DNA of 48,639 nt from a virus (IMGVR_UViG_2778261184_000002:1-48639), one strand, 5' to 3'; numbered from the stretch's first letter, positions 5,517-44,831 are shown. A program made the numbers and translations. The notes: generated by a model not told the origin, from the sequence alone.

Positions 5517-5533
5517 TGTTAGAAAATTAATTC
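5517..5533 (+). promoter_or_regulatory. Operator-like 17-bp motif copy (TGTTAGAAAATTAATTC)
   Basis: One of at least 14 copies of consensus TGTTAGAAAATTAATTT. Confidence 0.45.
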
Positions 5534-6105
5534 ATCATTTCTTGCACCGTCTGATAGAGCGTCATCTCTTCGGCATTGTGCCGTATAAAATCTGCTTTCC
5601 CGCCTATTTTTCCATCAGCATGAACAGGAACCAACCAGGGATATTGTTCGCGGATCTCTGCTGGCGCTGCGTGCTGGTGGTGCCATTTACACAAAGGGAG
5701 AACGTATTTATGGGCATCTTTAGCCGTTCTGCCAAATATGTGGTGGAGAGATACGACAGGGCTATGCTTCCCGTGAAGATGGCAGGCAATACAGGGGATT
5801 TTGCCTATAGCGTCCTGTATCCGGCGCTCTTCTGCTGTGAGTGATCTCCCTTTTAATCCGCGTGACGTGCGCGTTTTTTTGGGGAGGGCAGACGCCGCTC
5901 TCTCTCTTCTGCGCTGTTCACTTTGCCTCGCTTTTTCAAGTTTCTTTTGACGATATTCAGGCGATGCGGCTTTTTCCCTTGCGCGTTGCTGCTGGCGTTG
6001 AGCCTGCTGAAGACGTTTTGCCCTTTGCTCTTCCCGCCATTCCGGATCAGCCAGTTTTTGCATGGCTTTTTGTCTCTGTTTCTCCCAATAACTCTGTCTC
6101 TGCAT
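5527..6105 (-). CDS. ref: Ref-like HNH endonuclease (P1 recombination enhancement function family)
   Basis: 192 aa; highly charged R/Q/E/K-rich N-terminal ~80 aa followed by HNH-type motif CIACHLHG...SLHHIFGRT...LPLCKWHHQ; operator-like site upstream, as for P1 ref. Confidence 0.7.
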   Translation of the reverse strand: MQRQSYWEKQRQKAMQKLADPEWREEQRAKRLQQAQRQQQRAREKAASPEYRQKKLEKARQSEQRRRERAASALPKKTRTSRGLKGRSLTAEERRIQDAIGKIPCIACHLHGKHSPVVSLHHIFGRTAKDAHKYVLPLCKWHHQHAAPAEIREQYPWLVPVHADGKIGGKADFIRHNAEEMTLYQTVQEMMN

Positions 6106-6152
6106 GTTGGCTGCCTCTTACTTATCAGCGATTTTTTATGATTGATCATATT

Positions 6153-6182
6153 TGTTAGATATTCAAAATTGATTTTCTAACA
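6153..6182 (-). promoter_or_regulatory. 30-bp composite operator-like site (TGTTAGAAAATCAATT-N7-TCTAACA on minus strand)
   Basis: Full motif plus inverted TGTTAGA half-site at fixed 23-nt offset; upstream of ref-like gene. Confidence 0.5.
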
Positions 6183-6377
6183 CAAAACATTAATATCAGT
6201 CGCTGTTTACTGTTTGGGGGACATGATGCTTATAGCCTTAAGTGCGATCCACCAGCCACCTGTGAATGAGATCGGCCTGTTTTATGTGCTGTTTTTCGTC
6301 GCGTTGGCGCTACTTGAGCTTGGTATTGAGCTTTTTGCAGTGCTTATGTTTTGCGTCACGATGCTGGAGAAATTTTG

Positions 6378-7001
6378 ATGGTGAAACGTGTTTTGAAAAT
6401 TTACATCGCGGGTCCGATGACTGGTTATCCAGATTACAACCGTGCGGCGTTTAATGCGAAAGCGAGCGAGCTGATGGCTGAAGGGCATATCGTTCTGAAT
6501 CCAGCTGTGTTACCTGGTGGCCTTTGTCAGAGTGAATACATGGATATTTGCCTGGCAATGGTGCGTTCTGCTGATGCGATCTACTTGCTCAATCGATGGG
6601 AGGAATCGATTGGTGCTCGTGCAGAGCACGCGCTGGCTGAAAAGCTGGGGCTGACTGTAATTTATGAGTCACCAACCAACATTGAATGCCAGGTTGCTCC
6701 GCATATTTACCGGGAACTGGTCAATGCGTTACGTGATGTTGCTATTGAATGTCACGGCACGGATCAGCTTCGCGCTCGCTTAAGCCAAACCCTTTCCAGT
6801 TACCTGTCTTTGGCTGAAGGATACAACCTCCGACAGCGAAGAATGGTCAAATTAATCACTCTTTTATCGCAATCCCTTGCAAATGCTGAACCAACCAATC
6901 CGCTACCTGGTGACGCAATGAATTATCTGAAGTCATGCGGTGTTGTTTCTGAAGATGCAGTTCGTTTTGTGGAGTTTATGTCTCGGAGGATGTCGGCGTG
7001 A
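6378..7001 (+). CDS. Nucleoside 2-deoxyribosyltransferase-like protein (DUF4406-type)
   Basis: KIYIAGPMTG N-terminal motif; start placed at ATG 6378 (GGAG upstream) rather than track start 6351. Confidence 0.45.
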   Translation: MVKRVLKIYIAGPMTGYPDYNRAAFNAKASELMAEGHIVLNPAVLPGGLCQSEYMDICLAMVRSADAIYLLNRWEESIGARAEHALAEKLGLTVIYESPTNIECQVAPHIYRELVNALRDVAIECHGTDQLRARLSQTLSSYLSLAEGYNLRQRRMVKLITLLSQSLANAEPTNPLPGDAMNYLKSCGVVSEDAVRFVEFMSRRMSA

Positions 7002-7315
7002 GCTGGCGGGGATGGGGAAGGGCAGAAATCATGATACTCCGCCAGTGCGCCGGAACTATGACGGTAGAGAGTATTGGGAAGCTGATCGGTCGTACCGGTG
7101 ATGCCGTCAGGACTAAAGCGCGGGAGCTGGGGATCAGCATGATTCTGAAAGGAGACTTTCATCCGTCAGCCAAATACCGGCAGAGCGATATAGAACTGGC
7201 ACGGCAGCTTCATCAGTGTGGTGTTCCCCGCCGTGAGATCGCGGAAAAACTCGAAATGCCCCTGGGCATGATTAATCAGTACGTTTATTTCGAAAGGAGA
7301 GTGCATGAAGTCTGA
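6998..7315 (+). CDS. Small HTH DNA-binding protein
   Basis: 105 aa; two HTH-like segments (TVESIGKLIGRTGDAVRTKAREL; RREIAEKLEMPLGMINQYV); overlaps upstream stop. Confidence 0.45.
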   Translation: MSWRGWGRAEIMILRQCAGTMTVESIGKLIGRTGDAVRTKARELGISMILKGDFHPSAKYRQSDIELARQLHQCGVPRREIAEKLEMPLGMINQYVYFERRVHEV

Positions 7316-7814
7316 AGGTTTAACGCCCGCACAACTGGCAGAGCGTAACGCTGAGTATGTAACGGAAATTTCCCGACTTGAGAAAGAGCGCGCGGCGCTG
7401 GCGGCAGAGAATGCGACACTGAAGGCGATATGTGAGGACCGCCGCACGTTCATTATGAATGGCGTGCAGCTTGGTTTTATCAAGGTGCCAACAGTGGAAA
7501 CAGATCCAGCTCTTGAAACAATTCGTATCGCCATATCACCACAAAAAACCACTCCTGCGACCGATGCTTTCTTGGATGAAATGAAGACTGAAGCACGCAA
7601 GGAAGGGGCTTACTTTGTGGCGAACAGAATGTTGGCTGCCTGGAAAGCTGGTTTTATTGATGATACTGCGAAGAACGCCGAGGATATTGCCCAGATGATT
7701 CTTACCTCTACTGATTTTATGGCTAATGCGCCGGAAGGAGATTTTGACCGCTCATTCTCTGATGGCGTTCTCGAAGATATCGCTGAACAGCTTCGTAAAG
7801 GAGTCATCCAGTGA
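7305..7814 (+). CDS. Ea22-like mosaic protein (paralog 1)
   Basis: Shares coiled-coil block and C-terminal PATDAFL...AEQLRKG cassette with 7811-8449, 11025-11642, 11923-12600. Confidence 0.5.
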   Translation: MKSEGLTPAQLAERNAEYVTEISRLEKERAALAAENATLKAICEDRRTFIMNGVQLGFIKVPTVETDPALETIRIAISPQKTTPATDAFLDEMKTEARKEGAYFVANRMLAAWKAGFIDDTAKNAEDIAQMILTSTDFMANAPEGDFDRSFSDGVLEDIAEQLRKGVIQ

Positions 7815-8449
7815 GCGAGCTTTACTATCCGTTACGTGAACGTTATTCACCGAAACCAGCGCCTAAATGCCCTGTTTGTGGCGAGGAAATGTCAATGCAG
7901 CGCATATCTGGATCACATGTTGTTTATGCCTGTTCCGGCATGGAGGATGACGGATGCTTCAAAACTGGACGAACTTATGCTGACGAGCATTACAAAAATT
8001 CGCGCATATCAGTAGTTGATGGTAGCGATCCTGATGTGATTGAACTGCTGGACGAGAACGTGGAGATGGCCCTAACGCTTGAGAAGCTGCGTGTTGAGCT
8101 GGAGGCTGCTAAACAGCGTATTGCCAAATACGAAAGCAATTACGGGGCGATTGTGGCGGAATGCCAAAGCAAAAAAGCAGCACTTGAGGCAATTCTTTGC
8201 CATTGCCCAATTAATCATCCAGATATAGACATCGCATGTATAGCGAACATCGCTCATAACGAATTAGGCGAGGCGAAAAGCACTACATCTAAGGCATCCC
8301 TTGTAGAAATACAGGCACAAGGGGTGGAGGCATTCGCTTTGACGATGCGCGATACAGGAGATGACCCATTTTTTGATTCCGTTGCTTCTGCTTGCGCGGA
8401 TGCAGCTGATAGGTTCGCCGCCCAGCTTCGCAAAGGAGGCAACCGGTGA
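7811..8449 (+). CDS. Ea22-like mosaic protein (paralog 2) with N-terminal Cys cluster
   Basis: CPVCGEE...C-x-GMEDDGC zinc-ribbon-like N-terminus; LRVELEAAKQRIA coiled coil; C-terminal AAQLRKGGNR. Confidence 0.5.
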   Translation: MSELYYPLRERYSPKPAPKCPVCGEEMSMQRISGSHVVYACSGMEDDGCFKTGRTYADEHYKNSRISVVDGSDPDVIELLDENVEMALTLEKLRVELEAAKQRIAKYESNYGAIVAECQSKKAALEAILCHCPINHPDIDIACIANIAHNELGEAKSTTSKASLVEIQAQGVEAFALTMRDTGDDPFFDSVASACADAADRFAAQLRKGGNR

Positions 8450-9657: not shown

Positions 9658-9687
9658 TGTTAGATTGTTGATTTTAATTTTCTAACA
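9658..9687 (-). promoter_or_regulatory. 30-bp composite operator-like site (TGTTAGAAAATTAAAA-N7-TCTAACA on minus strand)
   Basis: Same architecture as 6153-6182; about 40 bp upstream of ORF 9730. Confidence 0.5.
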
Positions 9688-9729
9688 TATTATTTTACCG
9701 CTCGGAACAAAACAGAGTCGGTATGCATT

Positions 9730-11038: not shown

Positions 11039-11642
11039 CTATCAAGAACTGCGCGAGGCGGCGGAACAGGCAACGCAAGATGAATGGGTAGCATATATTT
11101 TGCCGGGTCATAACGGCATTTATCCTGCGCGCACGTCTGAAGGTAGGCATTGCGGATACTTTATTGACTGGCCTGGCATTGATGGACAAAGGAATGCTGG
11201 TGCTAATGCTCGTTATATCGCTGCTATCCCACCAAAAGTTGCGTTGTCACTACTGGATGAAATTAAACGTCAGGAGGACTCAAATATTGATGCTATGTGC
11301 CGTGTTGCAGAGCTTGAAACTAATATCGCGGCGCTGGTGGCAGAGAACGCCGGACTGAAACACGCAATGGCCGTAACTCTTGAGCATGTGTCGGTAACGG
11401 ATGCAGGGCAGGCCGGAGTTGCTGCGATGATTATTAATGATGCCCTGCACCACAGCGAAACGCCAGCTACCGACGCTTTCCTGGCGGAAGTGCGGGCGCA
11501 GGGGGTGGATATGGCTCGTAACGCGATGATTGATTTTGTTGATGGTGAAGTTGGGCCAAACAAGAACGTTCCGGGGCTGATTAGAGGCGCAGAGATATGC
11601 GTAAGTATTGCTGAACAGCTTCGCAAAGGAGGCAACCAGTGA
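11025..11642 (+). CDS. Ea22-like mosaic protein (paralog 3)
   Basis: NYQELREAAEQA, NARYIAAIPPKVALSLLDE, PATDAFLAEV, AEQLRKGGNQ blocks. Confidence 0.5.
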   Translation: MSKINYQELREAAEQATQDEWVAYILPGHNGIYPARTSEGRHCGYFIDWPGIDGQRNAGANARYIAAIPPKVALSLLDEIKRQEDSNIDAMCRVAELETNIAALVAENAGLKHAMAVTLEHVSVTDAGQAGVAAMIINDALHHSETPATDAFLAEVRAQGVDMARNAMIDFVDGEVGPNKNVPGLIRGAEICVSIAEQLRKGGNQ

Positions 11643-11926
11643 GCGAAATTAATTACCAGGCACTGCGTGAGGCGGCGGAACGTGCAATTCCAGCAATGGA
11701 ACGCCTGTTAATGTTGCCAGCTGATGATGATTTGTTAAGTGAACAAGAACTTAAAGATTACGGTGTGGATATTGATGCGCTCAACGCCTTCAAATTTCTG
11801 GCCGGACCAGAAACCGTGCTGGCGCTGCTGGATGAAAACGAAAGACTGTGTCGCGAGCTGATAGCTCGTAATGGTGAGATTGAAGGGCTTCGGAAGTGGG
11901 CAGAAGAACGGGAGATGCAACCATGA
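11639..11926 (+). CDS. Ea22-like mosaic protein (short paralog 4)
   Basis: INYQALREAAERA and LALLDENERL blocks only. Confidence 0.45.
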   Translation: MSEINYQALREAAERAIPAMERLLMLPADDDLLSEQELKDYGVDIDALNAFKFLAGPETVLALLDENERLCRELIARNGEIEGLRKWAEEREMQP

Positions 11927-12600
11927 TGACTTTTACCAGCGAACAATTAGCTACCTTACGTAAGATAGCGCAACAGGCAACACAGGGCGAATGGCGTGCA
12001 TTCATCTCGCCGGACACTGGTACATATGCGGTGCATACACCTGGTGATAAACGATGTGAAGACGTTATCAAATGGACCGGCTTTGATGGACAGAACAACG
12101 CAGAGAACAACGCTCGTTATATCGCAGCTTTCAACCCTGAAGTAGTGCAGGCACTACTGGATGAACGGGAAAGAAACCAGCAATACATCAAATCCCGCGA
12201 CCAGGAGAACGAGGATATTGCACTAACAGTTGGGAAGCTGAGAGTTGAGCTGGAAGCCGCAGAGAAGCGCATAGCAGAACTGGAAACAAAAGCGAACCAG
12301 CAAACCAGAATAAGCGATAAGGGGCTGACAAAGCTGATTGCCGATGCTGACAAAATGCTGGGTATGCGTTCGCCGGTTATAGACAGCGAGTGGTGGACGC
12401 TTTTACGGCAGTTCCTGATTGAACTTCAGGATCGCCGCAGAAACAGCATTTCTGAATCTGGAATCCGTGCTGAAACCCTGAATGATTTAATCCGACATAT
12501 TGACAGAAACCTGGATATTGACGCGATGAAATCGCCGTTTGAACTGTCATCTGAAATTGTGGATTACGTTAATAGGCAACTGCACAAGGAGAATTCGTAA
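11923..12600 (+). CDS. Ea22-like mosaic protein (paralog 5)
   Basis: NARYIAAFNPEVVQALLDE and LRVELEAAEKRIAELE blocks; start placed at ATG 11923 overlapping upstream stop. Confidence 0.5.
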   Translation: MMTFTSEQLATLRKIAQQATQGEWRAFISPDTGTYAVHTPGDKRCEDVIKWTGFDGQNNAENNARYIAAFNPEVVQALLDERERNQQYIKSRDQENEDIALTVGKLRVELEAAEKRIAELETKANQQTRISDKGLTKLIADADKMLGMRSPVIDSEWWTLLRQFLIELQDRRRNSISESGIRAETLNDLIRHIDRNLDIDAMKSPFELSSEIVDYVNRQLHKENS

Positions 12601-12782
12601 TGCAGGTGGCATTTGTTGGCCTGTTACCGCATCCGATCCGCCTTTGGGCGGATATGTCACTCATAAAAACGCATTTTTTTACTACTGATGGCGGCATTCC
12701 GGCACCAAAGCGCCGCCATACCGGTATTGCAGCGGCACGACGAGCAGCAAAGAAACGCAAACGCAGGAGAACAAAACGATGA
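12600..12782 (+). CDS. Small protein with poly-basic C-terminus
   Basis: 60 aa ending KKRKRRRTKR; overlaps neighbours by ATGA/TAATG junctions. Confidence 0.3.
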   Translation: MQVAFVGLLPHPIRLWADMSLIKTHFFTTDGGIPAPKRRHTGIAAARRAAKKRKRRRTKR

Positions 12783-12955
12783 AAAACCGTAAAGCAAAAT
12801 TACTTCTTTTATCGCGTTCGACGGGGTACGAGAAGCTACCAATCAGCAATCACAAACGGGCGGTGATCGGCATGTTTGGTAGGGTGGTATTCGCATTTAA
12901 CTATAAACCCACCGCGTCGAGGAACAGACGAGAGAAGGGGTACGCAGTGCGATGA
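12779..12955 (+). CDS. Candidate small ORF, 58 aa, N-terminus MKNRKAK
   Basis: First 21 nt nearly identical to the start of ORF 12952; not in track (under 60 aa). Confidence 0.25.
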   Translation: MKNRKAKLLLLSRSTGYEKLPISNHKRAVIGMFGRVVFAFNYKPTASRNRREKGYAVR

Positions 12956-13143
12956 AAAACCGTAAGGCAAAGATGCTGATAGCAAAGCCCGGGCAGCGTA
13001 TCCGTATCTCAAATCGGCTTGTTATTTACTATAGATATCTGGGTTTTAGGGGGTGTTCCTCTATTCGTTTTTACGGTGTCTGGCGGAGCAGAAGCGCGGC
13101 GCAAAACCGCTGGAAAAACCACTTGCGCACTAAAGGAGAGTGA
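12952..13143 (+). CDS. Candidate small ORF, 63 aa, N-terminus MKNRKAK
   Basis: Shares duplicated start sequence with 12779. Confidence 0.3.
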   Translation: MKNRKAKMLIAKPGQRIRISNRLVIYYRYLGFRGCSSIRFYGVWRSRSAAQNRWKNHLRTKGE

Positions 13144-13144
13144 G

Positions 13145-13660
13145 ATGGCGTTAACACACCGCGAACTCTGTCAGATTGCGTACAAGTTCCTTAAGCGCAA
13201 CGGGTTCAAGGTTTGCTTTCATGACCGCTTTATAGCTGTAACCAGTACCGGAGAACAGCCAGATGCTATGGGATTCAGAAATTCAGCATCATGCTTGATA
13301 GAGGCGAAGTGTTCTCGTGCTGACTTGTTGGCAGATAGAAAAAAGCGTTTCCGTAAAAATCCGTCTCTTGGAATGGGCGACTGGCGATTCTTTATTAGTG
13401 AGCCGGGAATTATTTCAGTTGAGGATTTACCTCCCGGCTGGGGATTACTTCACGTTGTTAACGGAAGAGTACGGAAAGTACATGGATGGCCCAAGGGGAA
13501 TTGCTGTTGGGGTAATCCTGACGATAAGCCATTTACTGGGAATAAGCAGGTTGAATGCGATTACATGTTATCTGCATTAAGGCGCATGGAGCTAAGAGGA
13601 CACCTTAATGAAATATATGACGGTGTAATTGTTAATAAGAAAGAAGGAAACGCGGCATGA
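13145..13660 (+). CDS. PD-(D/E)xK-type nuclease candidate
   Basis: D...E-A-K arrangement (PDAMGF ... CLIEAKC); start placed at ATG 13145 with AAGGAGAG RBS instead of track start 13019. Confidence 0.4.
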   Translation: MALTHRELCQIAYKFLKRNGFKVCFHDRFIAVTSTGEQPDAMGFRNSASCLIEAKCSRADLLADRKKRFRKNPSLGMGDWRFFISEPGIISVEDLPPGWGLLHVVNGRVRKVHGWPKGNCCWGNPDDKPFTGNKQVECDYMLSALRRMELRGHLNEIYDGVIVNKKEGNAA

Positions 13661-14148
13661 CAACTTTAACCGACAAAGAAATGATTAAAGAAATCAAAGA
13701 GCGCATAGGCAGCCTGGACGTGCGAGACAATATTGAGCGCCGGGCTTATGAAATTGCTCTGGCATCGCTGGAAGCAGAGCCGGTGGCGTGGAAGGCAACC
13801 TTCACGCAAATTGACAATGAATATAATACGTTCACTGCTCTGTATTCTGACAAAGCAGAAGTCGAACGGTGGGTGCGACTGCATGAAATAGCTGACTTTC
13901 GGGCAGATATAACACCGCTTTATACAGCCCAACCAGCGCCGGTAGCTCCAGATGGTTGGATAAGCTGTAGTGAGCGAATGCCGAAAGGGTATGCTGATGT
14001 GTTAGTGACCGACGGAGAGCATGTCGAGGTTAAATGGTGGGATGAATCTGGGTATTGGAATAGTTGGCCGGAACTTAACTCAGATATCTTTGCCGATGAA
14101 ATAACTCACTGGATGCCGCTACCAGAACCGCCGCAGGAGGCGAAATGA
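13657..14148 (+). CDS. DUF551-like phage protein
   Basis: C-terminal W-ISCSERMPK...HWMPLPEPP signature. Confidence 0.55.
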   Translation: MTTLTDKEMIKEIKERIGSLDVRDNIERRAYEIALASLEAEPVAWKATFTQIDNEYNTFTALYSDKAEVERWVRLHEIADFRADITPLYTAQPAPVAPDGWISCSERMPKGYADVLVTDGEHVEVKWWDESGYWNSWPELNSDIFADEITHWMPLPEPPQEAK

Positions 14149-14405
14149 TGGATGTAAAAGAGAAGGTTTTGCAGGTGATGCGTTCCCGGGCTGCCCTGCA
14201 AGATAAAGCTCTCGGCGGGGAATATCCATTCACGATAGCAACCTGGAATCTGCGGTTGGCAATGGAGAAGGAATTTCCTGATGAAGAATGGCGCTCGGCA
14301 GATTTGCGCAAAATTCTTATGGAACTGGCTAAAGACGGAGCAGTATCCAAAGATACCTATGCCAGCCGGATTGGTCAGGCGGTATGGAGACTGGAGGTGC
14401 GGTAA
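14145..14405 (+). CDS. Hypothetical protein
   Basis: 86-aa ORF, coupled to neighbours. Confidence 0.4.
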   Translation: MMDVKEKVLQVMRSRAALQDKALGGEYPFTIATWNLRLAMEKEFPDEEWRSADLRKILMELAKDGAVSKDTYASRIGQAVWRLEVR

Positions 14406-14686
14406 TGGCTAACCTGCAACTTGCTGTCAAAGGTGAATACTTCGATGCCATGATTCGCGGAGAGAAAACGGAAGAGTATCGCCTGTGTAATGACTACTGG
14501 AATAAGCGAATTATGTTCCGCGAGTATGACCGACTGATTATCACAAAGGGATATCCGAAGCGCGACGATTCCAGTCGCAGAATTGATGTTCCGTATGACG
14601 GATATGAAATCAAGACAATCACACATCCGCACTTTGGAGAGAATCCGGTTAAGGTATTTGCGATAAAGGTTAATATCAATGGCTAA
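14405..14686 (+). CDS. ASCH/PUA-like small protein candidate
   Basis: N-terminal LAVKGEYFDAMIRGEKTEEYRL pattern; start at ATG 14405. Confidence 0.35.
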   Translation: MANLQLAVKGEYFDAMIRGEKTEEYRLCNDYWNKRIMFREYDRLIITKGYPKRDDSSRRIDVPYDGYEIKTITHPHFGENPVKVFAIKVNING

Positions 14687-15083
14687 ATTTCAAAGAAATA
14701 TTATTTTTCTGGCAATGTTATCTGCCTGTCATTTATCTCATGCATCGGTTATTGCTGCGGGAGCTGCGGCAACCGCTGTAATTAGCGCCTCAGCCGCCAG
14801 CGAGCATGAGCAACGTACTGCAATCAATGCATCTGCCAATACCACCACGGTATCAGTAACACAAGAAAAGCCGAATATCGGCTTTGTTACTTGTGGCAAG
14901 CGATATGGTGAAATGGTTGGCTCTCTTGGTTGCGTAATGTGGCAAGACGACGACCGAACAGAAATTCCGTGGAACTCATGGCCTGGCTACATTCTTGGTA
15001 AGAAGCTGCCCACCAGCTATGAAGTAAATGCTATTTCGTTCGACCAATATAACAGTGTTGCAACGGTCTATTTCTCTTATTAA
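14679..15083 (+). CDS. Secreted protein
   Basis: Signal-peptide-like N-terminus (IIFLAMLSACHLSHASVIAAGAAA). Confidence 0.45.
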   Translation: MAKFQRNIIFLAMLSACHLSHASVIAAGAAATAVISASAASEHEQRTAINASANTTTVSVTQEKPNIGFVTCGKRYGEMVGSLGCVMWQDDDRTEIPWNSWPGYILGKKLPTSYEVNAISFDQYNSVATVYFSY

Positions 15084-15095
15084 CACGGAGTAATT

Positions 15096-15389
15096 ATGTG
15101 GCGCGGTAATAATCATGGTGGAAGCCAGATGATACTTACCGAATATCAGCTCGACCACAAAACCAATAAATCACGCTCAGTATATTTGCTTCGGCACAAT
15201 AGCCGCGTAAGGAATACCGTGCTGGAGCAAAATCTGACCGTTGAAATGGATAATTCGGGGAACTTCAAGCCAACAATTTCGCTTGATGATTTTCCGCGTG
15301 GTTTAAGCGAAAGAGAAGCCATGCTGAAATTAGCAGAATGGCTTCAGAGGTTAAGTATTGTTATTGAAGATAACTGGAGTCAACCATAA
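15096..15389 (+). CDS. Hypothetical protein
   Basis: 97-aa ORF. Confidence 0.35.
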   Translation: MWRGNNHGGSQMILTEYQLDHKTNKSRSVYLLRHNSRVRNTVLEQNLTVEMDNSGNFKPTISLDDFPRGLSEREAMLKLAEWLQRLSIVIEDNWSQP

Positions 15390-15565
15390 TGAAAAACAGA
15401 AAGAAATTTTGGATTACTTTTTTGTTTGTATGCCTTTGCGGTTTATTTATTTTATTAGCTGGTGGTGTTAAATGGGGTACGGTGGGGTGTGGTTTTTGGA
15501 GCGGGGTTACTCTTTTCGCAGCCTGGCTTATCGCCAACTTTGAGTCAGGCGGAGGGTATTGGTAA
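15389..15565 (+). CDS. Candidate 58-aa two-helix membrane peptide (MKNRKKFWITFLFVCLCGLFILLAGG...)
   Basis: ATG overlaps upstream TAA; two hydrophobic segments; not in track. Confidence 0.3.
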   Translation: MKNRKKFWITFLFVCLCGLFILLAGGVKWGTVGCGFWSGVTLFAAWLIANFESGGGYW

Positions 15566-15587
15566 GTGGTCTTATTCCCCACTTCAT

Positions 15588-15641
15588 AACGGATATCACG
15601 CTCGTGATAACGGATATTCCAATTTTGATAACGGATAAGGC
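15588..15641 (+). repeat. Three direct repeats of ATAACGGATA at ~18-20 bp spacing
   Basis: cATAACGGATAtcac, gATAACGGATAttcc, gATAACGGATAaggc immediately upstream of ORF 15645. Confidence 0.6.
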
Positions 15642-15644
15642 CAA

Positions 15645-15854
15645 ATGAAGCATTTTTTAAGGTTGGCATTTGTTCTGGCGCTATTTGATCCTCCGGCTGC
15701 AATGGCTGGAGAACAGCAACATTGCACAAAAGAGAATGAACACCCTTTCATCGTTATTCAATGCGATGACGGAACGGTGACTGTGGTTAATGTAAGAAAT
15801 GACCGTGTAGCTGTTTGCCGTAAAGGCGAACCATGCAAGGAAATAAAACTATGA
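15645..15854 (+). CDS. Small secreted Cys-containing protein
   Basis: 69 aa; signal peptide LAFVLALFDPPAAMA; four Cys. Confidence 0.4.
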   Translation: MKHFLRLAFVLALFDPPAAMAGEQQHCTKENEHPFIVIQCDDGTVTVVNVRNDRVAVCRKGEPCKEIKL

Positions 15855-16609
15855 CAAGAATCACTAAAGAGCGTATTTCAGATATTATTTCCCGTATCGA
15901 AATGTATGGTCACGGTGCTGGATATACGGCAGATGAAGTATTGGCACTTGCCCAAATGGCTTTGGCGGCTTGCAAAGATGATAAAAAAATGAAGCTTATC
16001 GACTTGTTAGTGAAGGAGCTGCCTAAGTGCGGCGGGTGGCCTGATGGTATGATCGATTGTCGCCTGCTCAGTGCCAATTTAATGGCGCCATGCGCGACTT
16101 TTGCTTTTGGCTCAGACCACAAAAAAGACACGTTCTTTGGGTGCAATTTTTGTTATGAGATTGAGCTTCCAATTGGTGACCTTGATAGCGATGAATACCT
16201 GTCAGTTGTCACTCGCGAACAATACGAATCAGCTCTCATAGCGTCGCAGAAAGTCGAGTTCAATGGTGATGAACTTGAAAGTAAGACTTACAGGTTGGAT
16301 TTTGGGCAATGGCTGGAACAGCAACGCGGGAAAATCGATGTGGACTGTGGTTGTGTGTCCACTGAAACATTCATGCACTGGCTGCGGGTAGCTTACGAGG
16401 CTGGCAACCATCCGGATTTTCCGGATAGTTCCCAACAATCGCCCAAGAAAAGCGTAAAAACCACTCTGGAAAGAGGCTATCTTGAGGCCGCATTAAAGAT
16501 TAAGCCGGGCCATACGCTAGGCGTCATTGATGCCATGTTGGTTCATGAAATGGCGAAGGCTTTATTGCCGCTGGTGGCTGATAAAATTCCGAATAAAGCC
16601 GATATCTGA
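15851..16609 (+). CDS. Hypothetical Cys-rich protein
   Basis: Start at ATG 15851 overlapping upstream stop (ATGA). Confidence 0.45.
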   Translation: MTRITKERISDIISRIEMYGHGAGYTADEVLALAQMALAACKDDKKMKLIDLLVKELPKCGGWPDGMIDCRLLSANLMAPCATFAFGSDHKKDTFFGCNFCYEIELPIGDLDSDEYLSVVTREQYESALIASQKVEFNGDELESKTYRLDFGQWLEQQRGKIDVDCGCVSTETFMHWLRVAYEAGNHPDFPDSSQQSPKKSVKTTLERGYLEAALKIKPGHTLGVIDAMLVHEMAKALLPLVADKIPNKADI

Positions 16610-16620
16610 TCACCATGCTA

Positions 16621-16651
16621 AAATCCCCTCAATTCACAGAGGGGATTTTTG
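16621..16651. terminator. Rho-independent terminator
   Basis: ATCCCCTC-aattcaca-GAGGGGAT followed by T5. Confidence 0.7.
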
Positions 16652-16921
16652 TATATGTTGCATAGAGTTTTATGGAAAAGCGTTATTGTCGGCGCGATAC
16701 TGGCTATATCTGGGTGTGCAATGGTGCAATACAACGACGGTGAAAAGGTAAGCATACAGTCAGATGGTTGGTATGGCCTGGATAGCCTGCAAAAAACCGC
16801 AGATAAAGCCTGTCAGCAATATGGGAAGTCTAAAGCAGTATATCAGCATAGCGCGAACGCTAACCCTCATCTAGCGCCCGGTTCTGGTGTTCAGAATACC
16901 ATCTGGAAATGTGAGCCTTAA
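16649..16921 (+). CDS. Lipoprotein candidate
   Basis: Lipobox-like LAISGC after a hydrophobic N-terminus. Confidence 0.5.
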
Positions 16922-16923
16922 AT

Positions 16924-17175
16924 ATGAGCGACTGGAATATTGCAGCTAAAAGTCAGGAAGAACGGGATAAGGTTAACGTTGATCTGGCTGCCAGCGGTGT
17001 GGCGTACAAAGAGCGATTGAACATACCTGTCATAGCTGAACAGGTAGCCCGCGAGCAACCAGAGAATCTGCGCACCTATTTCATGGAACGGCTACGGCAC
17101 TACCGGCAGTTAAGCCTCCAGTTGCCAAAAGGGAGCGATCCGGTGTATCAGAACGAGGATGCACCAAAAAAATAA
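16924..17175 (+). CDS. Hypothetical protein
   Basis: 83-aa ORF. Confidence 0.4.
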
Positions 17176-17260
17176 CGGCAAGATGGGGGAGAAATGTGAT
17201 TAGCCCCCAGCGTGGCGCGCCTACAAACCCCGCTTTCACAAACTATTCCTTTTCAATGTA

Positions 17261-21635: not shown

Positions 21636-21652
21636 TGTTAGAAATTTAATTT
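21636..21652 (+). promoter_or_regulatory. Operator-like motif copy (TGTTAGAAATTTAATTT)
   Basis: Between the recombinase gene stop and the start of the 21577 operon. Confidence 0.45.
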
Positions 21653-22679
21653 ACGAATCCATCAGGCGGCTATTAGCCCCCACAGACACGCCGCCACGGC
21701 GAAGATACCGCATAAGTGTTTCCGGTTTCTTCCAGGTTCCTTCCTGCATGATCTCCACCATAGACACCTGCTTTTCAGCCATATCAATAGCGGCCCCGAC
21801 GCGTGCACTATGCCCGGTCCACGTCCGGTATCTTCCTTTGTTTGGCGTAGCATCTCTTTTATTCAGCAACACCCAGGCGTCGCTGAATATTTTCTCCATT
21901 GCAGGTGCAGTAAGGGGCGTTGTCGTGATCCTGGCCTTATTGCTACGGTGTATCGGCGGGAACAGCACTGCGTCAGGATGTTCGCGAAGCCCGGAAACAT
22001 CCAGCCAGTCATTCAGCACAGCGGTAGTGCAACGGGAAAGCACCTTATCAAGCCCGGCGGCGGTCGTTATTGTCTTCGTGTGTGAAATATGTAGCGTGAC
22101 AGTGTCACCTGTTTGGTCCAGATCTCCTACACGAATACGCGAGATTTCCGACATACGCATCAGCGTATTGTATGCAACAAAGAGAAAAGCCCGGTTGCGC
22201 AGATCCACCAGCCGTTCTGACCTGGACAACAGGACGTCGAGCAGTTTCAGATCGTCCCACCGCAGCGGTATAGCCTGGCCTGTTCGTTCGCCTTTTTCAG
22301 TTGCCGCTTCGCGCCGGATGCGCCGCATAGCCAGAGAAACACTTTTATCATCCGAAAGTGGCGGAAGGCCACAATGCGAAAGCAGCATGTTCAGCATGGC
22401 GTAGTGCTTATCAATGGTGGTCGAAGCCAGATCGGCATCATGCAGCTGAAGAAAATACTCGCGGGCCATCTCTGGTGAGATCGGGAACCAGGCGAGCTGG
22501 CGAGCGTGACACCATCTCGCCCAGGAGTGAAACACTAACCGGAGATCGCGCAAAGTATTCGGCGCGTAAGCCCCCTGGTCATTCATGAACCGCATAAAGT
22601 TTTCTGCGGCCTCCTGGTACTCTTTGCCAATGTTGCGCAGAAAACCACTGGAGCTGCCAGAGATAATTAATTCACTCAT
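21651..22679 (-). CDS. dre: Cre-family tyrosine site-specific recombinase (Dre-like)
   Basis: 342 aa; collinear with P1 Cre over the whole length (SWA-WC...WFP, SLAMRRIRRE, AYNTLMRMSEI-RIRV-D, GHSARVGAA-DMA, C-terminal catalytic Tyr region); adjacent rox-type site. Confidence 0.85.
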   Translation of the reverse strand: MSELIISGSSSGFLRNIGKEYQEAAENFMRFMNDQGAYAPNTLRDLRLVFHSWARWCHARQLAWFPISPEMAREYFLQLHDADLASTTIDKHYAMLNMLLSHCGLPPLSDDKSVSLAMRRIRREAATEKGERTGQAIPLRWDDLKLLDVLLSRSERLVDLRNRAFLFVAYNTLMRMSEISRIRVGDLDQTGDTVTLHISHTKTITTAAGLDKVLSRCTTAVLNDWLDVSGLREHPDAVLFPPIHRSNKARITTTPLTAPAMEKIFSDAWVLLNKRDATPNKGRYRTWTGHSARVGAAIDMAEKQVSMVEIMQEGTWKKPETLMRYLRRGGVSVGANSRLMDS

Positions 22680-22831: not shown

Positions 22832-22863
22832 TAACTTTAAATAATGCCAATTATCTAAAGTTA
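22832..22863. other. lox/rox-type recombination site TAACTTTAAATAAT-GCCA-ATTATCTAAAGTTA
   Basis: 14-bp inverted arms around 4-bp spacer, 150 bp upstream of the recombinase gene; arms differ at one position. Confidence 0.75.
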
Positions 22864-22870
22864 GAAACTT
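22859..22870 (+). promoter_or_regulatory. Operator-like motif copy (AGTTAGAAACTT) overlapping the right arm of the rox-type site
   Basis: Partial match to consensus. Confidence 0.3.
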
Positions 22871-23036
22871 AGGAATTTTTTTCCTTTCCGCGTAGATGGG
22901 CAATGCATTGCTGGCGTGGGCTTTAAGTTATGCCTGGCAGTTTTTAAGCAGAATTTTCTAAATTGGATGATAAAAAAATGCATCTTGATCCTTTACTCAC
23001 CCTGTTATTCGGCATAGATTTGTCATAGTAATTTTA

Positions 23037-23053
23037 TGTTAGAAAACTAAATC
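23037..23053 (+). promoter_or_regulatory. Operator-like motif copy (TGTTAGAAAACTAAATC)
   Basis: 10 bp upstream of the RBS of ORF 23065. Confidence 0.45.
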
Positions 23054-27513: not shown

Positions 27514-27543
27514 TATTAGAAAATTAATTCCATTCATCTAACA
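27514..27543 (+). promoter_or_regulatory. 30-bp composite operator-like site (TATTAGAAAATTAATT-N7-TCTAACA)
   Basis: Same architecture and spacing as 6153-6182, 9658-9687 and 43595-43624. Confidence 0.5.
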
Positions 27544-28964: not shown

Positions 28965-29040
28965 TGGTGGCCCCTACCGGATTTGAACCGATGACCGTGC
29001 GATTATGAGTCGCCTGCTCTAACCACTGAGCTAAGGGGCC
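28965..29040 (-). tRNA. tRNA-Ile (anticodon CAU, lysidine-type ileX-like)
   Basis: GGCCCCTTAGCTCAGTGGTTAGAGCAGGCGACTCATAATCGC...GGTTCAAATCC...GGGGCCACCA; clean cloverleaf, encoded CCA. Confidence 0.9.
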
Positions 29041-29482
29041 AATTAGTTTTTATTTTCGACGTCTGAGATTCTTCGTAACTTGTTCTATTCCGTAGACGAT
29101 CACAAGTAGAAACAGCAAAGACCATCCAGGGTTCTTATCGATATACGTCCAAAAATCCATCATTAGTTCCTGTGTTCACCTTACAGCACTGCCACTGAAA
29201 CCAACTATCCGAACAGTAGTTGTCACTCAATAGACGTGACGTATTTATTAGGTTGCGGTGCCGGGTGCCTCCCGGTGCCTGGCGAAGGTTGCACGCCAGG
29301 CGGGTGAGTATCCACAGAAGGCCGACTGTCAGTCTCAACCTTGACCCGCGTGCGCTTAGCCGCATTCACCGCAATGGTAAGAGCACTTGGCTGGCTGGGC
29401 GGCGATGATGCCTGTACGCATTTGGTGATCCGGTTCTGCTTCCGGCATTCGCTTAATTAGCCAAATACTCTTAACGTTGCGC

Positions 29483-29569
29483 TGGCGGAGAGTAATGGAA
29501 TCGAACCATCATCGCTTGCGCAATGGGACGGTTTTCAAGACCGCTTGAGCACCATGCTCCCTACTCTCC
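29483..29569 (-). tRNA. tRNA-Ser (anticodon UGA), class II with long variable arm
   Basis: GGAGAGT...CGGTCTTGAAAACCG anticodon arm, T-arm GATGGTTCGATTCCATT, acceptor ACTCTCC-G-CCA. Confidence 0.85.
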
Positions 29570-29714
29570 GGCCGTTGTGGTGGCCGGTACTGAATCTCCG
29601 GCATACGGTGCAGCCAATTAGGACTACGGACGATCACCGCTCGCGAAAGGGAAGGTTTGCGGCCGCATTTCCCTAACATCCAAGAAAGCTATCGCATCAG
29701 TCTGCGAATCCACC

Positions 29715-29806
29715 ACAACGTTGAGAACACTGGTTGTCACGCTGCAACGCAACATTTATTCGTAGATTGGGATATGACCCCGTTACGTCAGTGTTCTCAA
29801 CGTTGT
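29715..29806. repeat. Perfect 18-bp inverted repeat (ACAACGTTGAGAACACTG / CAGTGTTCTCAACGTTGT) with 56-bp loop
   Basis: Arms 29715-29732 and 29789-29806, inside the tRNA cluster. Confidence 0.8.
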
Positions 29807-30034
29807 AGTACCGGTTACGGTTCCGGCCAGGCCTCTTCCTCAACGGGGTATTCTCCATACGGACTACCGTTTATTGGTCGTTCCTGCGGTTTATGTTGTG
29901 AAGCCAGATGCTTATCTTCTGGTTGCTTCAAAGAGCTGCACTTCATCACAACGGTAAGGGTACTTCGTAGGGATTCGAACCCTCTGCCAAGCACGGCGAT
30001 CTCCGACGTCGCAAAATACCCTTACCTGTTGTGT

Positions 30035-30110
30035 TGGTGCCGATTAACGGACTCGAACCGCTGACATCCTGCTTACAAGGCAGGCGCTCTACCAACTGAG
30101 CTAAACCGGC
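30035..30110 (-). tRNA. tRNA-Thr (anticodon UGU)
   Basis: GCCGGTTTAGCTCAGTTGGTAGAGCGCCTGCCTTGTAAGCAGG...GGTTCGAGTCC...ATCGGCACCA. Confidence 0.9.
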
Positions 30111-30112
30111 AT

Positions 30113-30189
30113 TGGCGATGGTGGGTGGATTCGAACCACCGACCGACAGCTTAGAAGGCTGCTGCTCTATCCTACTGAGCTACACCATC
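30113..30189 (-). tRNA. tRNA-Arg (anticodon UCU; reads rare AGA/AGG)
   Basis: GATGGTGTAGCTCAGTAGGATAGAGCAGCAGCCTTCTAAGCTGT...GGTGGTTCGAATCCACC-CACCATC-G-CCA. Confidence 0.9.
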
Positions 30190-30772: not shown

Positions 30773-31256
30773 ATGCGGCACTCTCTCCGCCCGTCACCGC
30801 TCTGTCTCGGTTGTCGCGTTTGCCACGCCAGCCGTAACGAGGTTTAAAGTCTTTGCACGTTTCCATCACTCGACTGCCGTCTGTGGCTGTTCGTTGCAGC
30901 GGGGGTGCCTCCCCCTGGGGATATCCCCGGCCTTACCCCATTCTTTCAAGACACAATGCAAGGCCGCATCCGCATAGGTGCATTACCGCAACATTAAGGA
31001 GACTTAGGGCAAAAGGTAATCGCCACAAAAAAATCCCTATGCCTCCTTAATGTTGAGGATGTGCATTGATGATGATTCGATGCGGCGAGTCCCGTTACTC
31101 TCTGCCGGACCATCATCAATGAACATCTTAAAAAGACCTTCCGTGGCTCAACATGTCTTGTCGTTTACTCCGTAAAGTGCTCTCTCTGAAACCACTTTAC
31201 GCACTAAACCTGCTGAACTTTGGCTTGCTCGGTGCCAAAGCGAGTCCCTGTATGCA

Positions 31257-31273
31257 TGTAATTTTCTAACACT
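31257..31273 (-). promoter_or_regulatory. Operator-like motif copy (TGTTAGAAAATTACA, minus strand)
   Basis: Consensus match in ORF-free region. Confidence 0.4.
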
Positions 31274-31421
31274 TTAATTTGTTATTTGCTGGTGGGCGAA
31301 CAACAACCAATAAGTGACTATCAAGCCCAGCAAGCGAAATGTGGCAACGCTCCACCAGCAAGGAAAATTCTAAGTTAAGTTACTCTCACAATCAATATGT
31401 TCGTTTGGTGAAATTAGATTT

Positions 31422-31438
31422 CTAACACATTATTTCCC
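31422..31438 (-). promoter_or_regulatory. Operator-like motif copy (TGTTAGAAATCTAAT, minus strand), internally palindromic
   Basis: Overlaps stop codon of ORF 31430..32650. Confidence 0.4.
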
Positions 31439-32650: not shown

Positions 32651-32661
32651 TGTTTTTGCAA

Positions 32662-32678
32662 AATTAGTTTTCTAACAT
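32662..32678 (-). promoter_or_regulatory. Operator-like motif copy (TGTTAGAAAACTAATTT, minus strand)
   Basis: 12-25 bp upstream of the 406-aa ORF start. Confidence 0.45.
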
Positions 32679-33263: not shown

Positions 33264-33416
33264 TTAATCAAGACAAACATATTCCGTGATAGCTTTTATG
33301 GCTTCAGCGGCACTGCGCGCCTCAAAGCAGTAGTAACCTGCTTCGGTGAGGCGAGTCATCCAGACGAGTTGTTCGGGAGTCAGGCGATTTCTCCCATGTT
33401 TCATCTCAATGCGCAT
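33264..33416 (-). CDS. Candidate 50-aa small protein (MRIEMKHGRNRLTPEQLVWMTRLTEAGYYCFEARSAAEAIKAITEYVCLD)
   Basis: Not in track; sits immediately upstream of the DUF2829-like gene, same position icd occupies in the other two modules. Confidence 0.25.
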   Translation of the reverse strand: MRIEMKHGRNRLTPEQLVWMTRLTEAGYYCFEARSAAEAIKAITEYVCLD

Positions 33417-33442
33417 TCCGTGGTATCCCCCACAAGCAAGGT

Positions 33443-33754
33443 CTATAGAAAGACGGGATATCCCTTCTTTTGGCCCTCTGCCACCATTTTTATTGCCGTC
33501 CTTATGCCTCGCAGACCGCCGTTTGGAGTGGCGTGTGTATGCTCATACACATAGCGCATATTGCGATACAACCAATCCAGGACGCGTACCTGCTCGTAAT
33601 GCTCATGGTTCCTTTTGATTAGATCTGGGTTTTTCTCCAGTTCTCTGAGAGCTGCGGCATGTGGGGATGTTTCAGAATATTCACTGCGACGCCTTCTTTT
33701 TCTCGCTATTTTTCTAACACACCCATTGATAGTAAATAAGCGAAATAATAACAA
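33443..33754 (-). CDS. Uncertain ORF
   Basis: Track ORF whose first codons overlap an operator-like motif (33704-33719); true start unclear. Confidence 0.2.
   Translation of the reverse strand: MLLFRLFTINGCVRKIARKRRRRSEYSETSPHAAALRELEKNPDLIKRNHEHYEQVRVLDWLYRNMRYVYEHTHATPNGGLRGIRTAIKMVAEGQKKGYPVFL
33704..33719 (-). promoter_or_regulatory. Operator-like motif copy, degenerate (TGTTAGAAAAATAGCG, minus strand)
   Basis: Left half conserved. Confidence 0.3.
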
Positions 33755-41560: not shown

Positions 41561-41574
41561 CAAAATCACATACT
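41561..41574 (+). promoter_or_regulatory. Candidate late-promoter element CAAAATCACATACT
   Basis: 44 bp upstream of CHAP-hydrolase ATG; near-identical element (CAAATCACATACT) 41 bp upstream of the portal-like gene on the minus strand (47578-47590). Confidence 0.3.
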
Positions 41575-42104: not shown

Positions 42105-42131
42105 AAAAAGCCCCGGCCAGGCCGGGGCATC
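42104..42131 (-). terminator. Rho-independent terminator (minus strand)
   Basis: GCCCCGGCC-ag-GCCGGGGC hairpin followed on the minus strand by T6. Confidence 0.6.
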
Positions 42132-42136
42132 ACGCT

Positions 42137-43265: not shown

Positions 43266-43267
43266 AG

Positions 43268-43400
43268 TTACGGCCTCACTAACAGGTTTAACAACCTGCT
43301 ACCCGCTGTCAAACAGGTGGCAGGACGTGACAGGGTTGACAGACTGGCGTTAGTGAAACCAGCAGGCCGAAGCCTCCCCATCACGCCCCACCATAATTCG
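43268..43400 (-). ncRNA. Candidate c4-like antisense/structured RNA region upstream of icd
   Basis: Nested inverted repeats (CCTCACTAAC/GTTAGTGAAA; CTGTCAA/TTGACAG; CAGGTGG) between operator-like site and icd start. Confidence 0.3.
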
Positions 43401-43594
43401 GGCGTAACGCGGTTTACGGACACAAAAATACCGCAATATCGGAAATCTGCGGTTGTCCGCACTAACATTCAGGCTGTCAAACCTGGTCGCAGAATTTGCT
43501 ACGACGGCATGAATATAAGCCTGAAAACATGGAAGATCAACTAAAAATTTCAGCAATGGATGACTTCAGTCGATGATGCAGATCATACATTCCG

Positions 43595-43624
43595 ATTTAG
43601 AAACGGCAAATTAATTTTCTAACA
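43595..43624 (-). promoter_or_regulatory. 30-bp composite operator-like site (TGTTAGAAAATTAATT-N7-TCTAAAT on minus strand)
   Basis: Upstream of the c4-like/icd/ant module, analogous to P1 Op51. Confidence 0.5.
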
Positions 43625-43678
43625 CAAAATGTCGAGCGAGCATTTTCCGATCATTGGGATGTTTTGTAGACGCACAGG

Positions 43679-44641
43679 TCATCCCCTAAAGCCAGCCGGG
43701 ATTGACCAATCCTCACGGTCAAATTCAGACCGATAGCCACGCTGTTTCATCAGGTCAAAGGCTTCACCAATGGTTGCACACCCCTGGGAGCCAGAATAAT
43801 CCATTGAGAAATCCAGGGCACTGGATTGTTTAGGCTTATTCACTGCGGTAGCGGCACTACGTATCCATGCAAATTTTTTTGCCAGCTTTTCAGCGGTACG
43901 ATACAGAGCCTGCCGTTTTGTGTGCCCCTCGTCTGAACGACGCTTTGCAGCTCTCGCTTTTGCCGCCGCCAGGCAGTGGTTGGTCTGTTCTTCCCTGATT
44001 ACTGTTTTTTTATCCAGTACCCCGTTATCCGTTTGAGAACTATCTGCTGGTGAAGCCTTTGGCTGAACCGCGCATGATCTTTCTCTTCTTTTGGCTATAG
44101 AGTGACTCTTATTTTCTATTGGCTGTTCATTTTGAACATGGGGGGACTTGTTCAATTTGAACAGGGGGTTCCCAGTTTCAAAAAAATAACGAACCTTTGA
44201 AATCAACTGCTTAACCAGTTTTGTGGCGTTGGCAAATTTGATGCCCTGCTTACCCCCTATCTCCATTGCTACATGAATGAAGTGGAGAAATAGTGTCGTA
44301 AACCGATATACGTTACACACCTGGGCATTGTTATTCGCTACCTGATGTTGCTTAACAAGCATTCCGCACTTCGTCGCTTCAGCAAATGCCCGGCGTACAG
44401 TAGAAATACTGCGTCCTGTAATCTCGGACATATCAGCATATGAGCGACGGATCATGTATTCATCGGTAGACCCTGCCAGGTTGGCGAACTCGGCAATAAT
44501 GGCGCTATGTGAAGGGGAAAGAAGACCGCTATGACGAGCAAAAAAACTCAACTGATGACCTTTGATTTTTTTGTGGTATTCAGTGTTGTTTTTATACTCA
44601 GAAGTGTTGAAAGTTACTGAAACTGAATTTAAAATATTCAT
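43679..44641 (-). CDS. Hypothetical HTH-containing protein
   Basis: 320 aa; HTH-like MSEITGRSISTVRRAFAEATKCGML. Confidence 0.45.
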   Translation of the reverse strand: MNILNSVSVTFNTSEYKNNTEYHKKIKGHQLSFFARHSGLLSPSHSAIIAEFANLAGSTDEYMIRRSYADMSEITGRSISTVRRAFAEATKCGMLVKQHQVANNNAQVCNVYRFTTLFLHFIHVAMEIGGKQGIKFANATKLVKQLISKVRYFFETGNPLFKLNKSPHVQNEQPIENKSHSIAKRRERSCAVQPKASPADSSQTDNGVLDKKTVIREEQTNHCLAAAKARAAKRRSDEGHTKRQALYRTAEKLAKKFAWIRSAATAVNKPKQSSALDFSMDYSGSQGCATIGEAFDLMKQRGYRSEFDREDWSIPAGFRG

Positions 44642-44814
44642 CAGATAGTTCCGTGCAAAAATCTATCTACCGTATAAATCTATGCCAGTGGATTTATACA
44701 CCAAAAAGCCGCTTCTCAGCGGCTTTTGCTTTTTTTGGCAGTCGCTACCGGAGCAGTGACCGCGATCCTACTCGATCACATCGGACAGGATCAACAGTGT
44801 ATATAAATACACTA

Positions 44815-44831
44815 TGTTAGAAATTTAATTT
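44815..44831 (+). promoter_or_regulatory. Operator-like motif copy (TGTTAGAAATTTAATTT) preceded by near-palindrome AGTGTATATAAATACACT
   Basis: Intergenic between pro-like and the 320-aa gene. Confidence 0.4.

Follow-up and report, generated by a model that had tools for sequence, protein, structure and literature searches.

The virus-derived sequence IMGVR_UViG_2778261184_000002:1-48639 (48,639 nucleotides, hereafter the window) carries an asymmetric 17-bp word dispersed between its positions 5,517 and 44,831, and the question that this locus raises is which protein recognizes the word and to what end. An original prediction, made from the sequence alone, regarded the copies as a network of operators that parallels the dispersed C1 operators of phage P1 in a different sequence, implied a distinct immunity specificity, and pointed to the open reading frame at 23065-24102 as the source of the binding protein. 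Homology, positions that match those of P1, mutual exclusivity of the P1 and window words, and a phylogenetic footprint all support this proposal. Sequence relationships place the window among the D6-like plasmid prophages of Escherichia coli in the P1 family, and the word very probably serves as the operator for the D6-type C1 repressor, the product of 23065-24102.

The original prediction had proposed comparing the motif frequency with a composition-matched background, and this comparison strongly favors a real signal. The consensus TGTTAGAAAATTAATTT was matched 11 times at three or fewer mismatches on the two strands of the window (5517+, 6166-, 9671-, 21636+, 23037+, 27514+, 31255-, 31411-, 32661-, 43608-, and 44815+), as compared to a mean of 0.28 and a maximum of two matches in 100 dinucleotide-preserving shuffles. 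A twelfth copy, at 33703-33719 (-), combines a perfect 10-bp head, TGTTAGAAAA, with a diverged tail. That 10-mer alone is present in eight copies where 0.13 are expected, and the TGTTAGAAA family was the most over-represented word family after Chi in a k-mer count of the window. At least 14 copies had been claimed; beyond the 12 robust ones, the copy placed at 22951 proved to be weak and that at 22859 doubtful. Coordinates had been off by 1-2 nt for the minus-strand sites, and by 11 nt for the one given as 31422, with the sites themselves present. A position weight matrix trained on the window's own sites was set aside as circular, and consensus search and k-mer statistics were relied on instead. 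The 12 robust copies spread over 39 kb in both orientations, and the word is non-palindromic, with an invariant 5' part (the TGTTAGAAA head) and a degenerate, AT-rich 3' tail. Position counts indicate that the conserved word starts 2 nt further upstream and reads T-R-TGTTAGAAA(A/T)(T/C)TAATTT.

The placement of the copies bore out the expectation that nearly all would be intergenic, as nine of the 12 lie entirely in non-coding DNA, which makes up 13% of the window, and the other three overlap the ref stop codon, the dre stop codon, and the 5' end of a frameshifted pmgM. Absence of the word upstream of darB, the portal gene prt, and pacA had also been predicted, and a scan of the window found no operator site at any of the three. 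These are late genes in P1. Use of the word as a late-promoter element was rejected. The distribution likewise bears on the possibility that the word is a non-regulatory repeat, serving recombination, partition, or packaging, acting as a replication iteron, or left by a mobile element. One weak copy does overlap an arm of the recombination site rox, but this overlap is not conserved in D6. The copies are instead dispersed over ~40 kb in both orientations, stand singly at promoters, and form no arrays, and it is the 17-19 bp word alone that is conserved and not its flanks. We give this possibility next to no credence.

The proposed binder is the product of c1 (23065-24102, +), a 345-residue protein assigned by homology as the D6-type C1 prophage repressor. 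It is 90% identical to the C1 protein of D6, which is annotated as 'phage repressor protein, similar to C1 of P1', and it aligns with P1 C1 at 20% identity over 239 residues (E 8e-8), both proteins belonging to PHROG 1678. The window protein is 62 residues longer than P1 C1 and has a predicted C-terminal helical hairpin. Against the NCBIfam phage_rep_C1 equivalog it scored 23.1 bits, well short of the cutoff of 500 that P1 C1 passes with 607.5 bits, which places it outside that equivalog, and it had no match in Pfam-A and no sequence match in the Protein Data Bank (PDB). The C1 family is small, with 59 representatives in 1.84 billion proteins, and at least 157 PLSDB plasmids encode a member of it. 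In the window, c1 adjoins the recombinase gene dre (21651-22679) and its target rox (22832-22863), and a repressor gene beside a cre/lox-type module is likewise a feature of P1 and P7. The assignment of the element itself follows from 92% identity to the D6 immC record, collinearity with the D6 genome, to which most of the length is 88-97% identical, and 93-97% identity to many E. coli plasmids of ~90 kb. Gene identities throughout the window were taken from collinearity with D6, tblastn with P1 proteins, Rfam, and ARAGORN.

One argument for C1 comes from P1, whose C1 operators were taken as annotated in the RefSeq record. Sites in the window occupy the places of the P1 operators Oref, Omat, Oc1, Olpa, Oc4, OrepL, and Obanab and of the OpmgR region, so that ref, the ref stop codon, c1, lpa, the c4-icd-ant module, repL, and a tRNA-containing operon are operator places common to both elements. 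This agrees with the prediction that the copies lie upstream of early-type genes (ref, lpa, icd/ant, and the recombinase region). The operators of P1/P7 and of the window are also alike in form, being dispersed, 17 bp long, and asymmetric; in both, the 5' two-thirds are invariant and the tail is AT-rich and degenerate. A comparison with the P1 consensus had been suggested as well, and it is in the recognition word that the two diverge: the window has TGTTAGAAAATTAATTT where P1 has ATTGCTCTAATAAATTT. The consensus sequences are identical at nine of 17 positions, all but one of which fall in the AT-rich tail (AAT-AATTT), and the heads differ. At four or fewer mismatches, ATTGCTCTAATAAATTT had 22 matches in P1 itself and none in the window, and it is absent from D6 also; conversely, the D6-type word had no match at three or fewer mismatches in P1. 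The two words are thus mutually exclusive between the genomes.

This exclusivity is difficult to reconcile with a host protein as the binder, since P1 and D6-like phages both live in E. coli. The word could in principle be recognized by a host factor or be an unspecific AT-rich element common to early promoters, for instance an UP element or a site of the IHF/Fis type, and its tail is indeed AT-rich and often supplies hexamers resembling -35 or -10 elements. Yet orthologous promoters carry exclusive words in P1 and in D6-like elements within the same host, a third word replaces the D6-type word in a Citrobacter relative (below), and the invariant part is the G-containing head TGTTAGAAA as opposed to the AT-rich tail. 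We consider a host-factor element very improbable.

In the complete D6 genome, the same word occurs at positions orthologous to those in the window, and the sole D6 site outside the region covered by the window is a bivalent pair that precedes hrdC-dmt and corresponds to P1 Odmt. Operators are annotated in neither D6 record (AY753669 and NC_050154), and a full-text literature search, which was incomplete, did not find the word or D6 operators described, so that a prior description is possible. By analogy with P1, the operator network is a further member of the P1-type C1 operator kind; the heteroimmunity of D6 and its c1 gene were already known, and dispersed operators were to be expected. The features that are the window network's own are its recognition sequence, the 30-bp spacing of its bivalent sites, the lack of a detected Coi or Lxc, and the longer C1.

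The relatives compared differ in the identity of their C1 to that of the window: D6 (90%), two further elements (L007, 81%, and L008, 71%), an Enterobacter plasmid (L006, 42.5%), a Pantoea plasmid (L009, 29%), and the Citrobacter portucalensis plasmid NZ_CP099368.1 (L010, 28%). Alignments of the window, D6, L007, L008, and the Enterobacter plasmid show the word as a distinct stretch of identity at the promoters of c1, lpa, and ref, with conservation limited to the 17-19 bp of the word and flanks that are unconserved. The Enterobacter plasmid carries 11 copies of TGTTAGAAAAT where 0.8 are expected. The Citrobacter plasmid has neither the P1 word nor the D6 word and instead contains a third, CCTTAGAATT, in nine copies as compared to 0.71 expected. 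Its positions there include 5775, 13543, 13614, 18375, 19661, 26028, 26208, and 39793, with copies upstream of rdgC-dam, ref, c1, and the gene in the lpa position, and also after the recombinase gene, so that several occupy places orthologous to operators of P1 and D6. No convincing operator word was found in the Pantoea plasmid, where copies of GTCAGCGAT are mostly coding and TTAAGAAT has four copies only. Taken across the family, operator positions appear from these sequences to be fixed and the recognition word to be replaced, with ATTGCTCT in P1, TGTTAGAAA in D6-like elements, and CCTTAGAAT in the Citrobacter relative.

At four of the sites, a second head stands in inverted orientation at a distance of exactly 23 nt, which places two 17-mers tail to tail with a 4-bp overlap in a span of 30 bp. 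This was the sole recurrent head-to-head offset in the window, D6, and L007. The original prediction had described four identical 30-bp palindromic copies; the 23-nt spacing holds in all four, and the sequence is exact in two of them (6153-6182 and 9658-9687). One head reads TATTAGA in 27514-27543, and the second head of 43595-43624 is degenerate (ATTTAGA). The second half of the bivalent sites is poorly conserved across relatives. Overlapping bivalent operators arranged tail to tail are common to P1 and the window, and they differ in dimensions: at P1 Obanab the two 17-mers overlap by 6 bp and span 28 bp.

Together, these comparisons suggest how the network may operate. In a lysogen, C1 would bind each 17-19 bp asymmetric site of the extended form given above, probably as a monomer, with two molecules occupying each 30-bp tail-to-tail bivalent site. 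Monomeric operator binding is carried over from P1. The bound repressor would block RNA polymerase at promoters that a site overlaps, abuts, or follows, and most sites do overlap or abut promoter-like hexamers as called by a relaxed sigma-70 scoring devised for this analysis. The predicted regulon comprises c1 itself, through autoregulation; lpa and, through lpa, all late genes; repL, for lytic replication; the two C4-icd(-ant) antirepressor modules; ref; the tRNA/tci operon; the pmg genes; the operon downstream of dre; and the pdcB operon. The invariant head TGTTAGAAA would carry the specificity that separates D6-type immunity from that of P1/P7 (ATTGCTCT), and the degenerate, AT-rich 3' part is common to P1 and the window.

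What is directly supported is that the sites exist, with their statistics, placement, and conservation, that their word and the P1 word exclude each other, and that the open reading frame is homologous to C1. Several points nevertheless weigh against the scheme as a whole. We infer C1 as the binder, the stoichiometry, and repression from evidence that is comparative throughout, and monomeric binding is suggested by analogy with P1 and by a moderate fold match. The promoter overlaps are soft, because a strict sigma-70 scan found fewer promoters in the window than in shuffles and many of the relaxed calls draw on the AT-rich operator tail itself. The sites at 31411 and 44815 lie 16-21 bp upstream of the best -35, a geometry that does not readily suggest simple occlusion. 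Covariation with the word cannot single out C1, given that P1 and D6-like elements differ in every protein, and the motif head is unchanged while C1 identity drops to 42%, from which it follows that specificity does not simply track overall C1 divergence. These last two points would equally suit recognition of the word by another phage regulator of D6-like elements, such as an uncharacterized helix-turn-helix protein or a second repressor, in that differences between P1 and D6-like elements are not specific to C1 and the head stays constant across C1 variants from 100% to 42% identical. Such a regulator would have to act at the places of experimentally defined C1 operators of P1, including a site 12 bp upstream of c1, and through a 17-bp asymmetric form and bivalent architecture that copy the P1 C1 system, and no other operator-binding immunity protein homologue was found near the sites. 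We therefore consider another regulator unlikely and retain C1 as the candidate binder.

The individual sites give this regulon its detail. The site proposed as autoregulatory, TGTTAGAAAACTAAATC at 23037-23053 (+), lies 12 bp upstream of the c1 ATG and is the counterpart of P1 Oc1/Op99. It is conserved in five relatives together with an upstream -35 (TTTACT, 22992-22997) and -10 (TAGATT, 23015-23020), and these conserved hexamers would place the operator ~10-27 nt downstream of the transcription start. Within the dre-c1 spacer, a weak operator, ATTTAGAAAATTCTGCT, lies at 22947-22963 (-) and corresponds to the copy originally placed at 22951. Its head alone, TTAGAAAA, is conserved in four relatives, inside a spacer that is otherwise unalignable, and TTTTCTAA at these coordinates is kept in the window, D6, L007, and L008 despite non-aligning flanks. 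The doubtful site, AGTTAGAAACTTAGGAA at 22859-22875 (+), overlaps the right arm of rox and is doubted because it consists mostly of that arm and because D6 does not retain it and has AGTTATAAA instead. As a separate observation, rox itself differs by one base in the right arm from the rox of D6 (ATTATCTAAAGTTA as compared to ATTATTTAAAGTTA), which breaks the perfect symmetry of the arms. On the other side of dre, an operator at 21636-21652 (+) overlaps the dre stop codon and lies upstream of the orf117-dut operon (-), with a -35 candidate, TTAAAT, at 21649-21644 within the operator and an orthologous D6 site at 89948; in the Citrobacter plasmid, the third word occupies this place at 18375.

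Two sites flank ref. The second C4-icd module (-) has upstream of it an operator at 5517-5533 (+) that overlaps the ref stop codon and is the positional counterpart of P1 Omat, which at 2628-2645 of the P1 record likewise overlaps the ref stop codon. The promoter candidate here, under relaxed scoring, consists of a -35 TTGAGT at 5509-5504 and a -10 TACATT at 5486-5481. Between ref (-) and a divergent plus-strand operon, the bivalent operator 6153-6182, counterpart of P1 Oref, is made up of a strong half (6166-6182, -), kept in D6 and the Enterobacter plasmid, and a weak half (6153-6169, +), and it holds the -35 of both divergent promoter candidates (TTGATT, 6169-6174, +; TTGAAT, 6166-6161, -). 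A second bivalent operator with both heads intact, 9658-9687, is located between ppp and pdcB, with its strong half at 9671-9687 (-), a -35 TTGATT at 9668-9673 inside the operator, and a -10 TATTTT at 9691-9696; the same pair is present in D6 at 80709/80722.

The late-promoter activator gene lpa (27043-27435, -) is preceded by the bivalent operator 27514-27543, counterpart of P1 Olpa/Op94, where ATTAATTTTCTAA is invariant in four relatives, one of them with a C1 that is 42% identical, and the flanks diverge. Upstream of the tRNA/tciA-tciB operon stands a pair of minus-strand operators, the distal member at 31255-31271 and the other at 31411-31427. The latter is the counterpart of P1 Obanab and lies 16 bp upstream of a strong promoter candidate (TTGATT-17-TAGAAT, 31395-31367) that leads into four tRNA genes (30189-28965, -). 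The Obanab operon of P1 also carries tRNAs and tciA-C, and L007 has a perfect bivalent operator at the equivalent place (12654-12683). Two more minus-strand sites belong to the pmgR-pmgS-pmgM region, where the P1 counterparts are OpmgRa/b, O26, and Oppp. The first, 32661-32677, is 11 bp upstream of pmgS and directly follows a -10 candidate (TAAAAT, 32684-32679), a position comparable to that of OpmgRa/b, and the second, the copy with perfect head and diverged tail at 33703-33719, falls within the 5' end of pmgM, with the promoter candidate TTTACA-16-TATTAT (33772-33745) located upstream of it. The pmgM homologue itself (33270-33673, -) is split over two frames in the window, with tblastn pieces at 33673-33455 and 33491-33270, and gives a single high-scoring segment pair in D6, which points to a frameshift or a sequencing error.

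The lytic replication initiator gene repL (43679-44641, -) has an operator upstream at 44815-44831 (+), the counterpart of P1 OrepL/Op53, with a D6 orthologue at 22467. Beyond repL, the operator of an immI-type operon, 43595-43624, combines a perfect 17-mer at 43608-43624 (-) with the degenerate second half and is the counterpart of P1 Oc4/Op51. It is abutted by a -35 candidate (TTGCCG, 43609-43604), just as P1 Oc4 abuts the promoter P2c4. The order that follows on the minus strand is that of an immI module, in which the operator and -35 are succeeded by an a1b1 target at 43466-43518 (Rfam), the C4 antisense RNA at 43313-43398 (Rfam RF01695, 68.8 bits), icd, and the antirepressor gene ant. Control of an antirepressor by a C4 antisense RNA is thus shared by P1 and the window, with an ant product here of the Rha/Roi type and not P1 Ant1. 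Unlike P1, the window has two C4 modules. The second (4.2-5.5 kb) contains an isrK/a1b1-like element at 4901-4979 (-; RF01394, 62.5 bits) followed by a C4 antisense RNA at 4769-4856 (-; RF01695, 76.7 bits) and an icd remnant, and its ant is largely missing relative to D6. This deletion is evident from the alignment, in which window 4249-4536 corresponds to D6 73990-74277 and window 4536 onward to D6 75000 onward.

Other immunity accessories of P1 appear to be absent. Searches of the window and D6 by tblastn with P1 proteins detected no homologues of Coi, Lxc, C8, KilA, Ant1, Ban, or Ssb; for Coi and Lxc there was no match at E<=1e-3, a threshold that small diverged proteins could escape. Lxc is reported to be missing from a D6-like plasmid too (PMC6799933).

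The late genes, which carry no operator word, were also searched for promoter elements. The P1-type late-promoter box ACAAGTGACT had two loose matches in the window, none of them at darB, prt, or pacA. A 12-mer, AGTATGTGATTT, occurs exactly upstream of darB at 41563-41574 (-), in the region divergent with the gene at 41619, and upstream of prt at 47578-47589 (+), and it resembles the P1 late-promoter -22 box ACAAGTGACTT. On this resemblance, AGTATGTGATTT may be a D6-type Lpa box. Its enrichment at two or fewer mismatches is marginal, with eight matches as compared to 4.3 expected, a count that four of 100 shuffles reached.

Several further differences from D6 and features of composition were apparent. 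A ~6 kb region at 11056-17203, from the pdcB-side genes to hot/humD, had no D6 nucleotide match except for 186 bp at 11328-11513 and no operator copies, and appears to be a replaceable accessory-gene region. Of the four tRNA genes at 28965-30189 (-), tRNA-Arg(tct) is found where D6 has tRNA-Asn(gtt). The D6 record (L002), in turn, puts three tRNAs of 6084-7850 on the plus strand and omits tRNA-Met at 6084-6159; according to ARAGORN, all four belong to the minus strand. No 8-mer of the window is more over-represented than the Chi octamer GCTGGTGG, with 39 copies (15 on the plus and 24 on the minus strand) where 1.3 are expected. P1 is likewise Chi-rich.

How a repressor might read an asymmetric operator was approached through the predicted structure of C1. 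An AlphaFold2 model built with 50 homologues (predicted local distance difference test 93.9, predicted template modeling score (pTM) 0.77) contains an alpha/beta core that ends near residue 232, followed at 233-307 by a long helical hairpin at the C terminus. The top fold match of this model was the replication terminator protein Tus, with low TM-scores of 0.30-0.39, and a BFVD search returned no fold match for C1. In hhalign, C1 85-186 was paired with Tus 145-258 (E 0.0026, a weak probability of 11%). One of 50 C1 family members (P0058) drew the Pfam Ter profile (PF05472) at 14.8 bits (E 0.015), which falls below the gathering cutoff of 22 and so outside the family; its residues 105-172 aligned to profile positions 170-239 in a register that agrees with the hhalign pairing. 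The window C1 had no PF05472 match, and a hidden Markov model built from Tus homologues, all at least 81% identical, gave noise-level scores against C1 proteins, the best having an E of 0.014 among 51 sequences. In the model, three family-invariant residues, R41, R157, and R159, fall on strands. Tus itself binds as a monomer and clamps its asymmetric site with inter-domain beta strands. From the model and these alignments, C1 proteins of the P1/D6 type could be remote structural homologues of Tus, each a monomer clamping an asymmetric operator via inter-domain beta strands, a proposition that we regard as evenly balanced, with the fold relationship itself rated as even to likely. A likeness between Ter and the operator around ATGTT...ACTAAA was dismissed as coincidence, as it needs a 2-nt gap and fits some variants only. 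A literature search, likewise incomplete, found no paper connecting C1 and Tus.

A resemblance of C1 to Tus, if real, would explain the asymmetry of C1 operators, a trait long known from P1. It would supply the first structural rationale for monomeric recognition of an asymmetric operator by C1 and a lead on the origin of Tus, and C1-operator complexes would possibly be orientation-dependent roadblocks. This fold and the conservation of operator positions with turnover of the word are the parts of possible specialist interest. The orthogonal repressor-operator pairs of the P1, D6, and Citrobacter types could serve synthetic circuits, beside the already exploited Cre/lox and Dre/rox systems. 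D6-like phage-plasmids occur widely in E. coli, Shigella, and Salmonella, and such elements have been linked to invasive and multidrug-resistant lineages (PMC6799933; bioRxiv 10.1101/2025.09.12.675607). For these elements, the operator word and the regulon map would predict which are homo-immune and which are hetero-immune, and would indicate the genes that are silent in lysogens.

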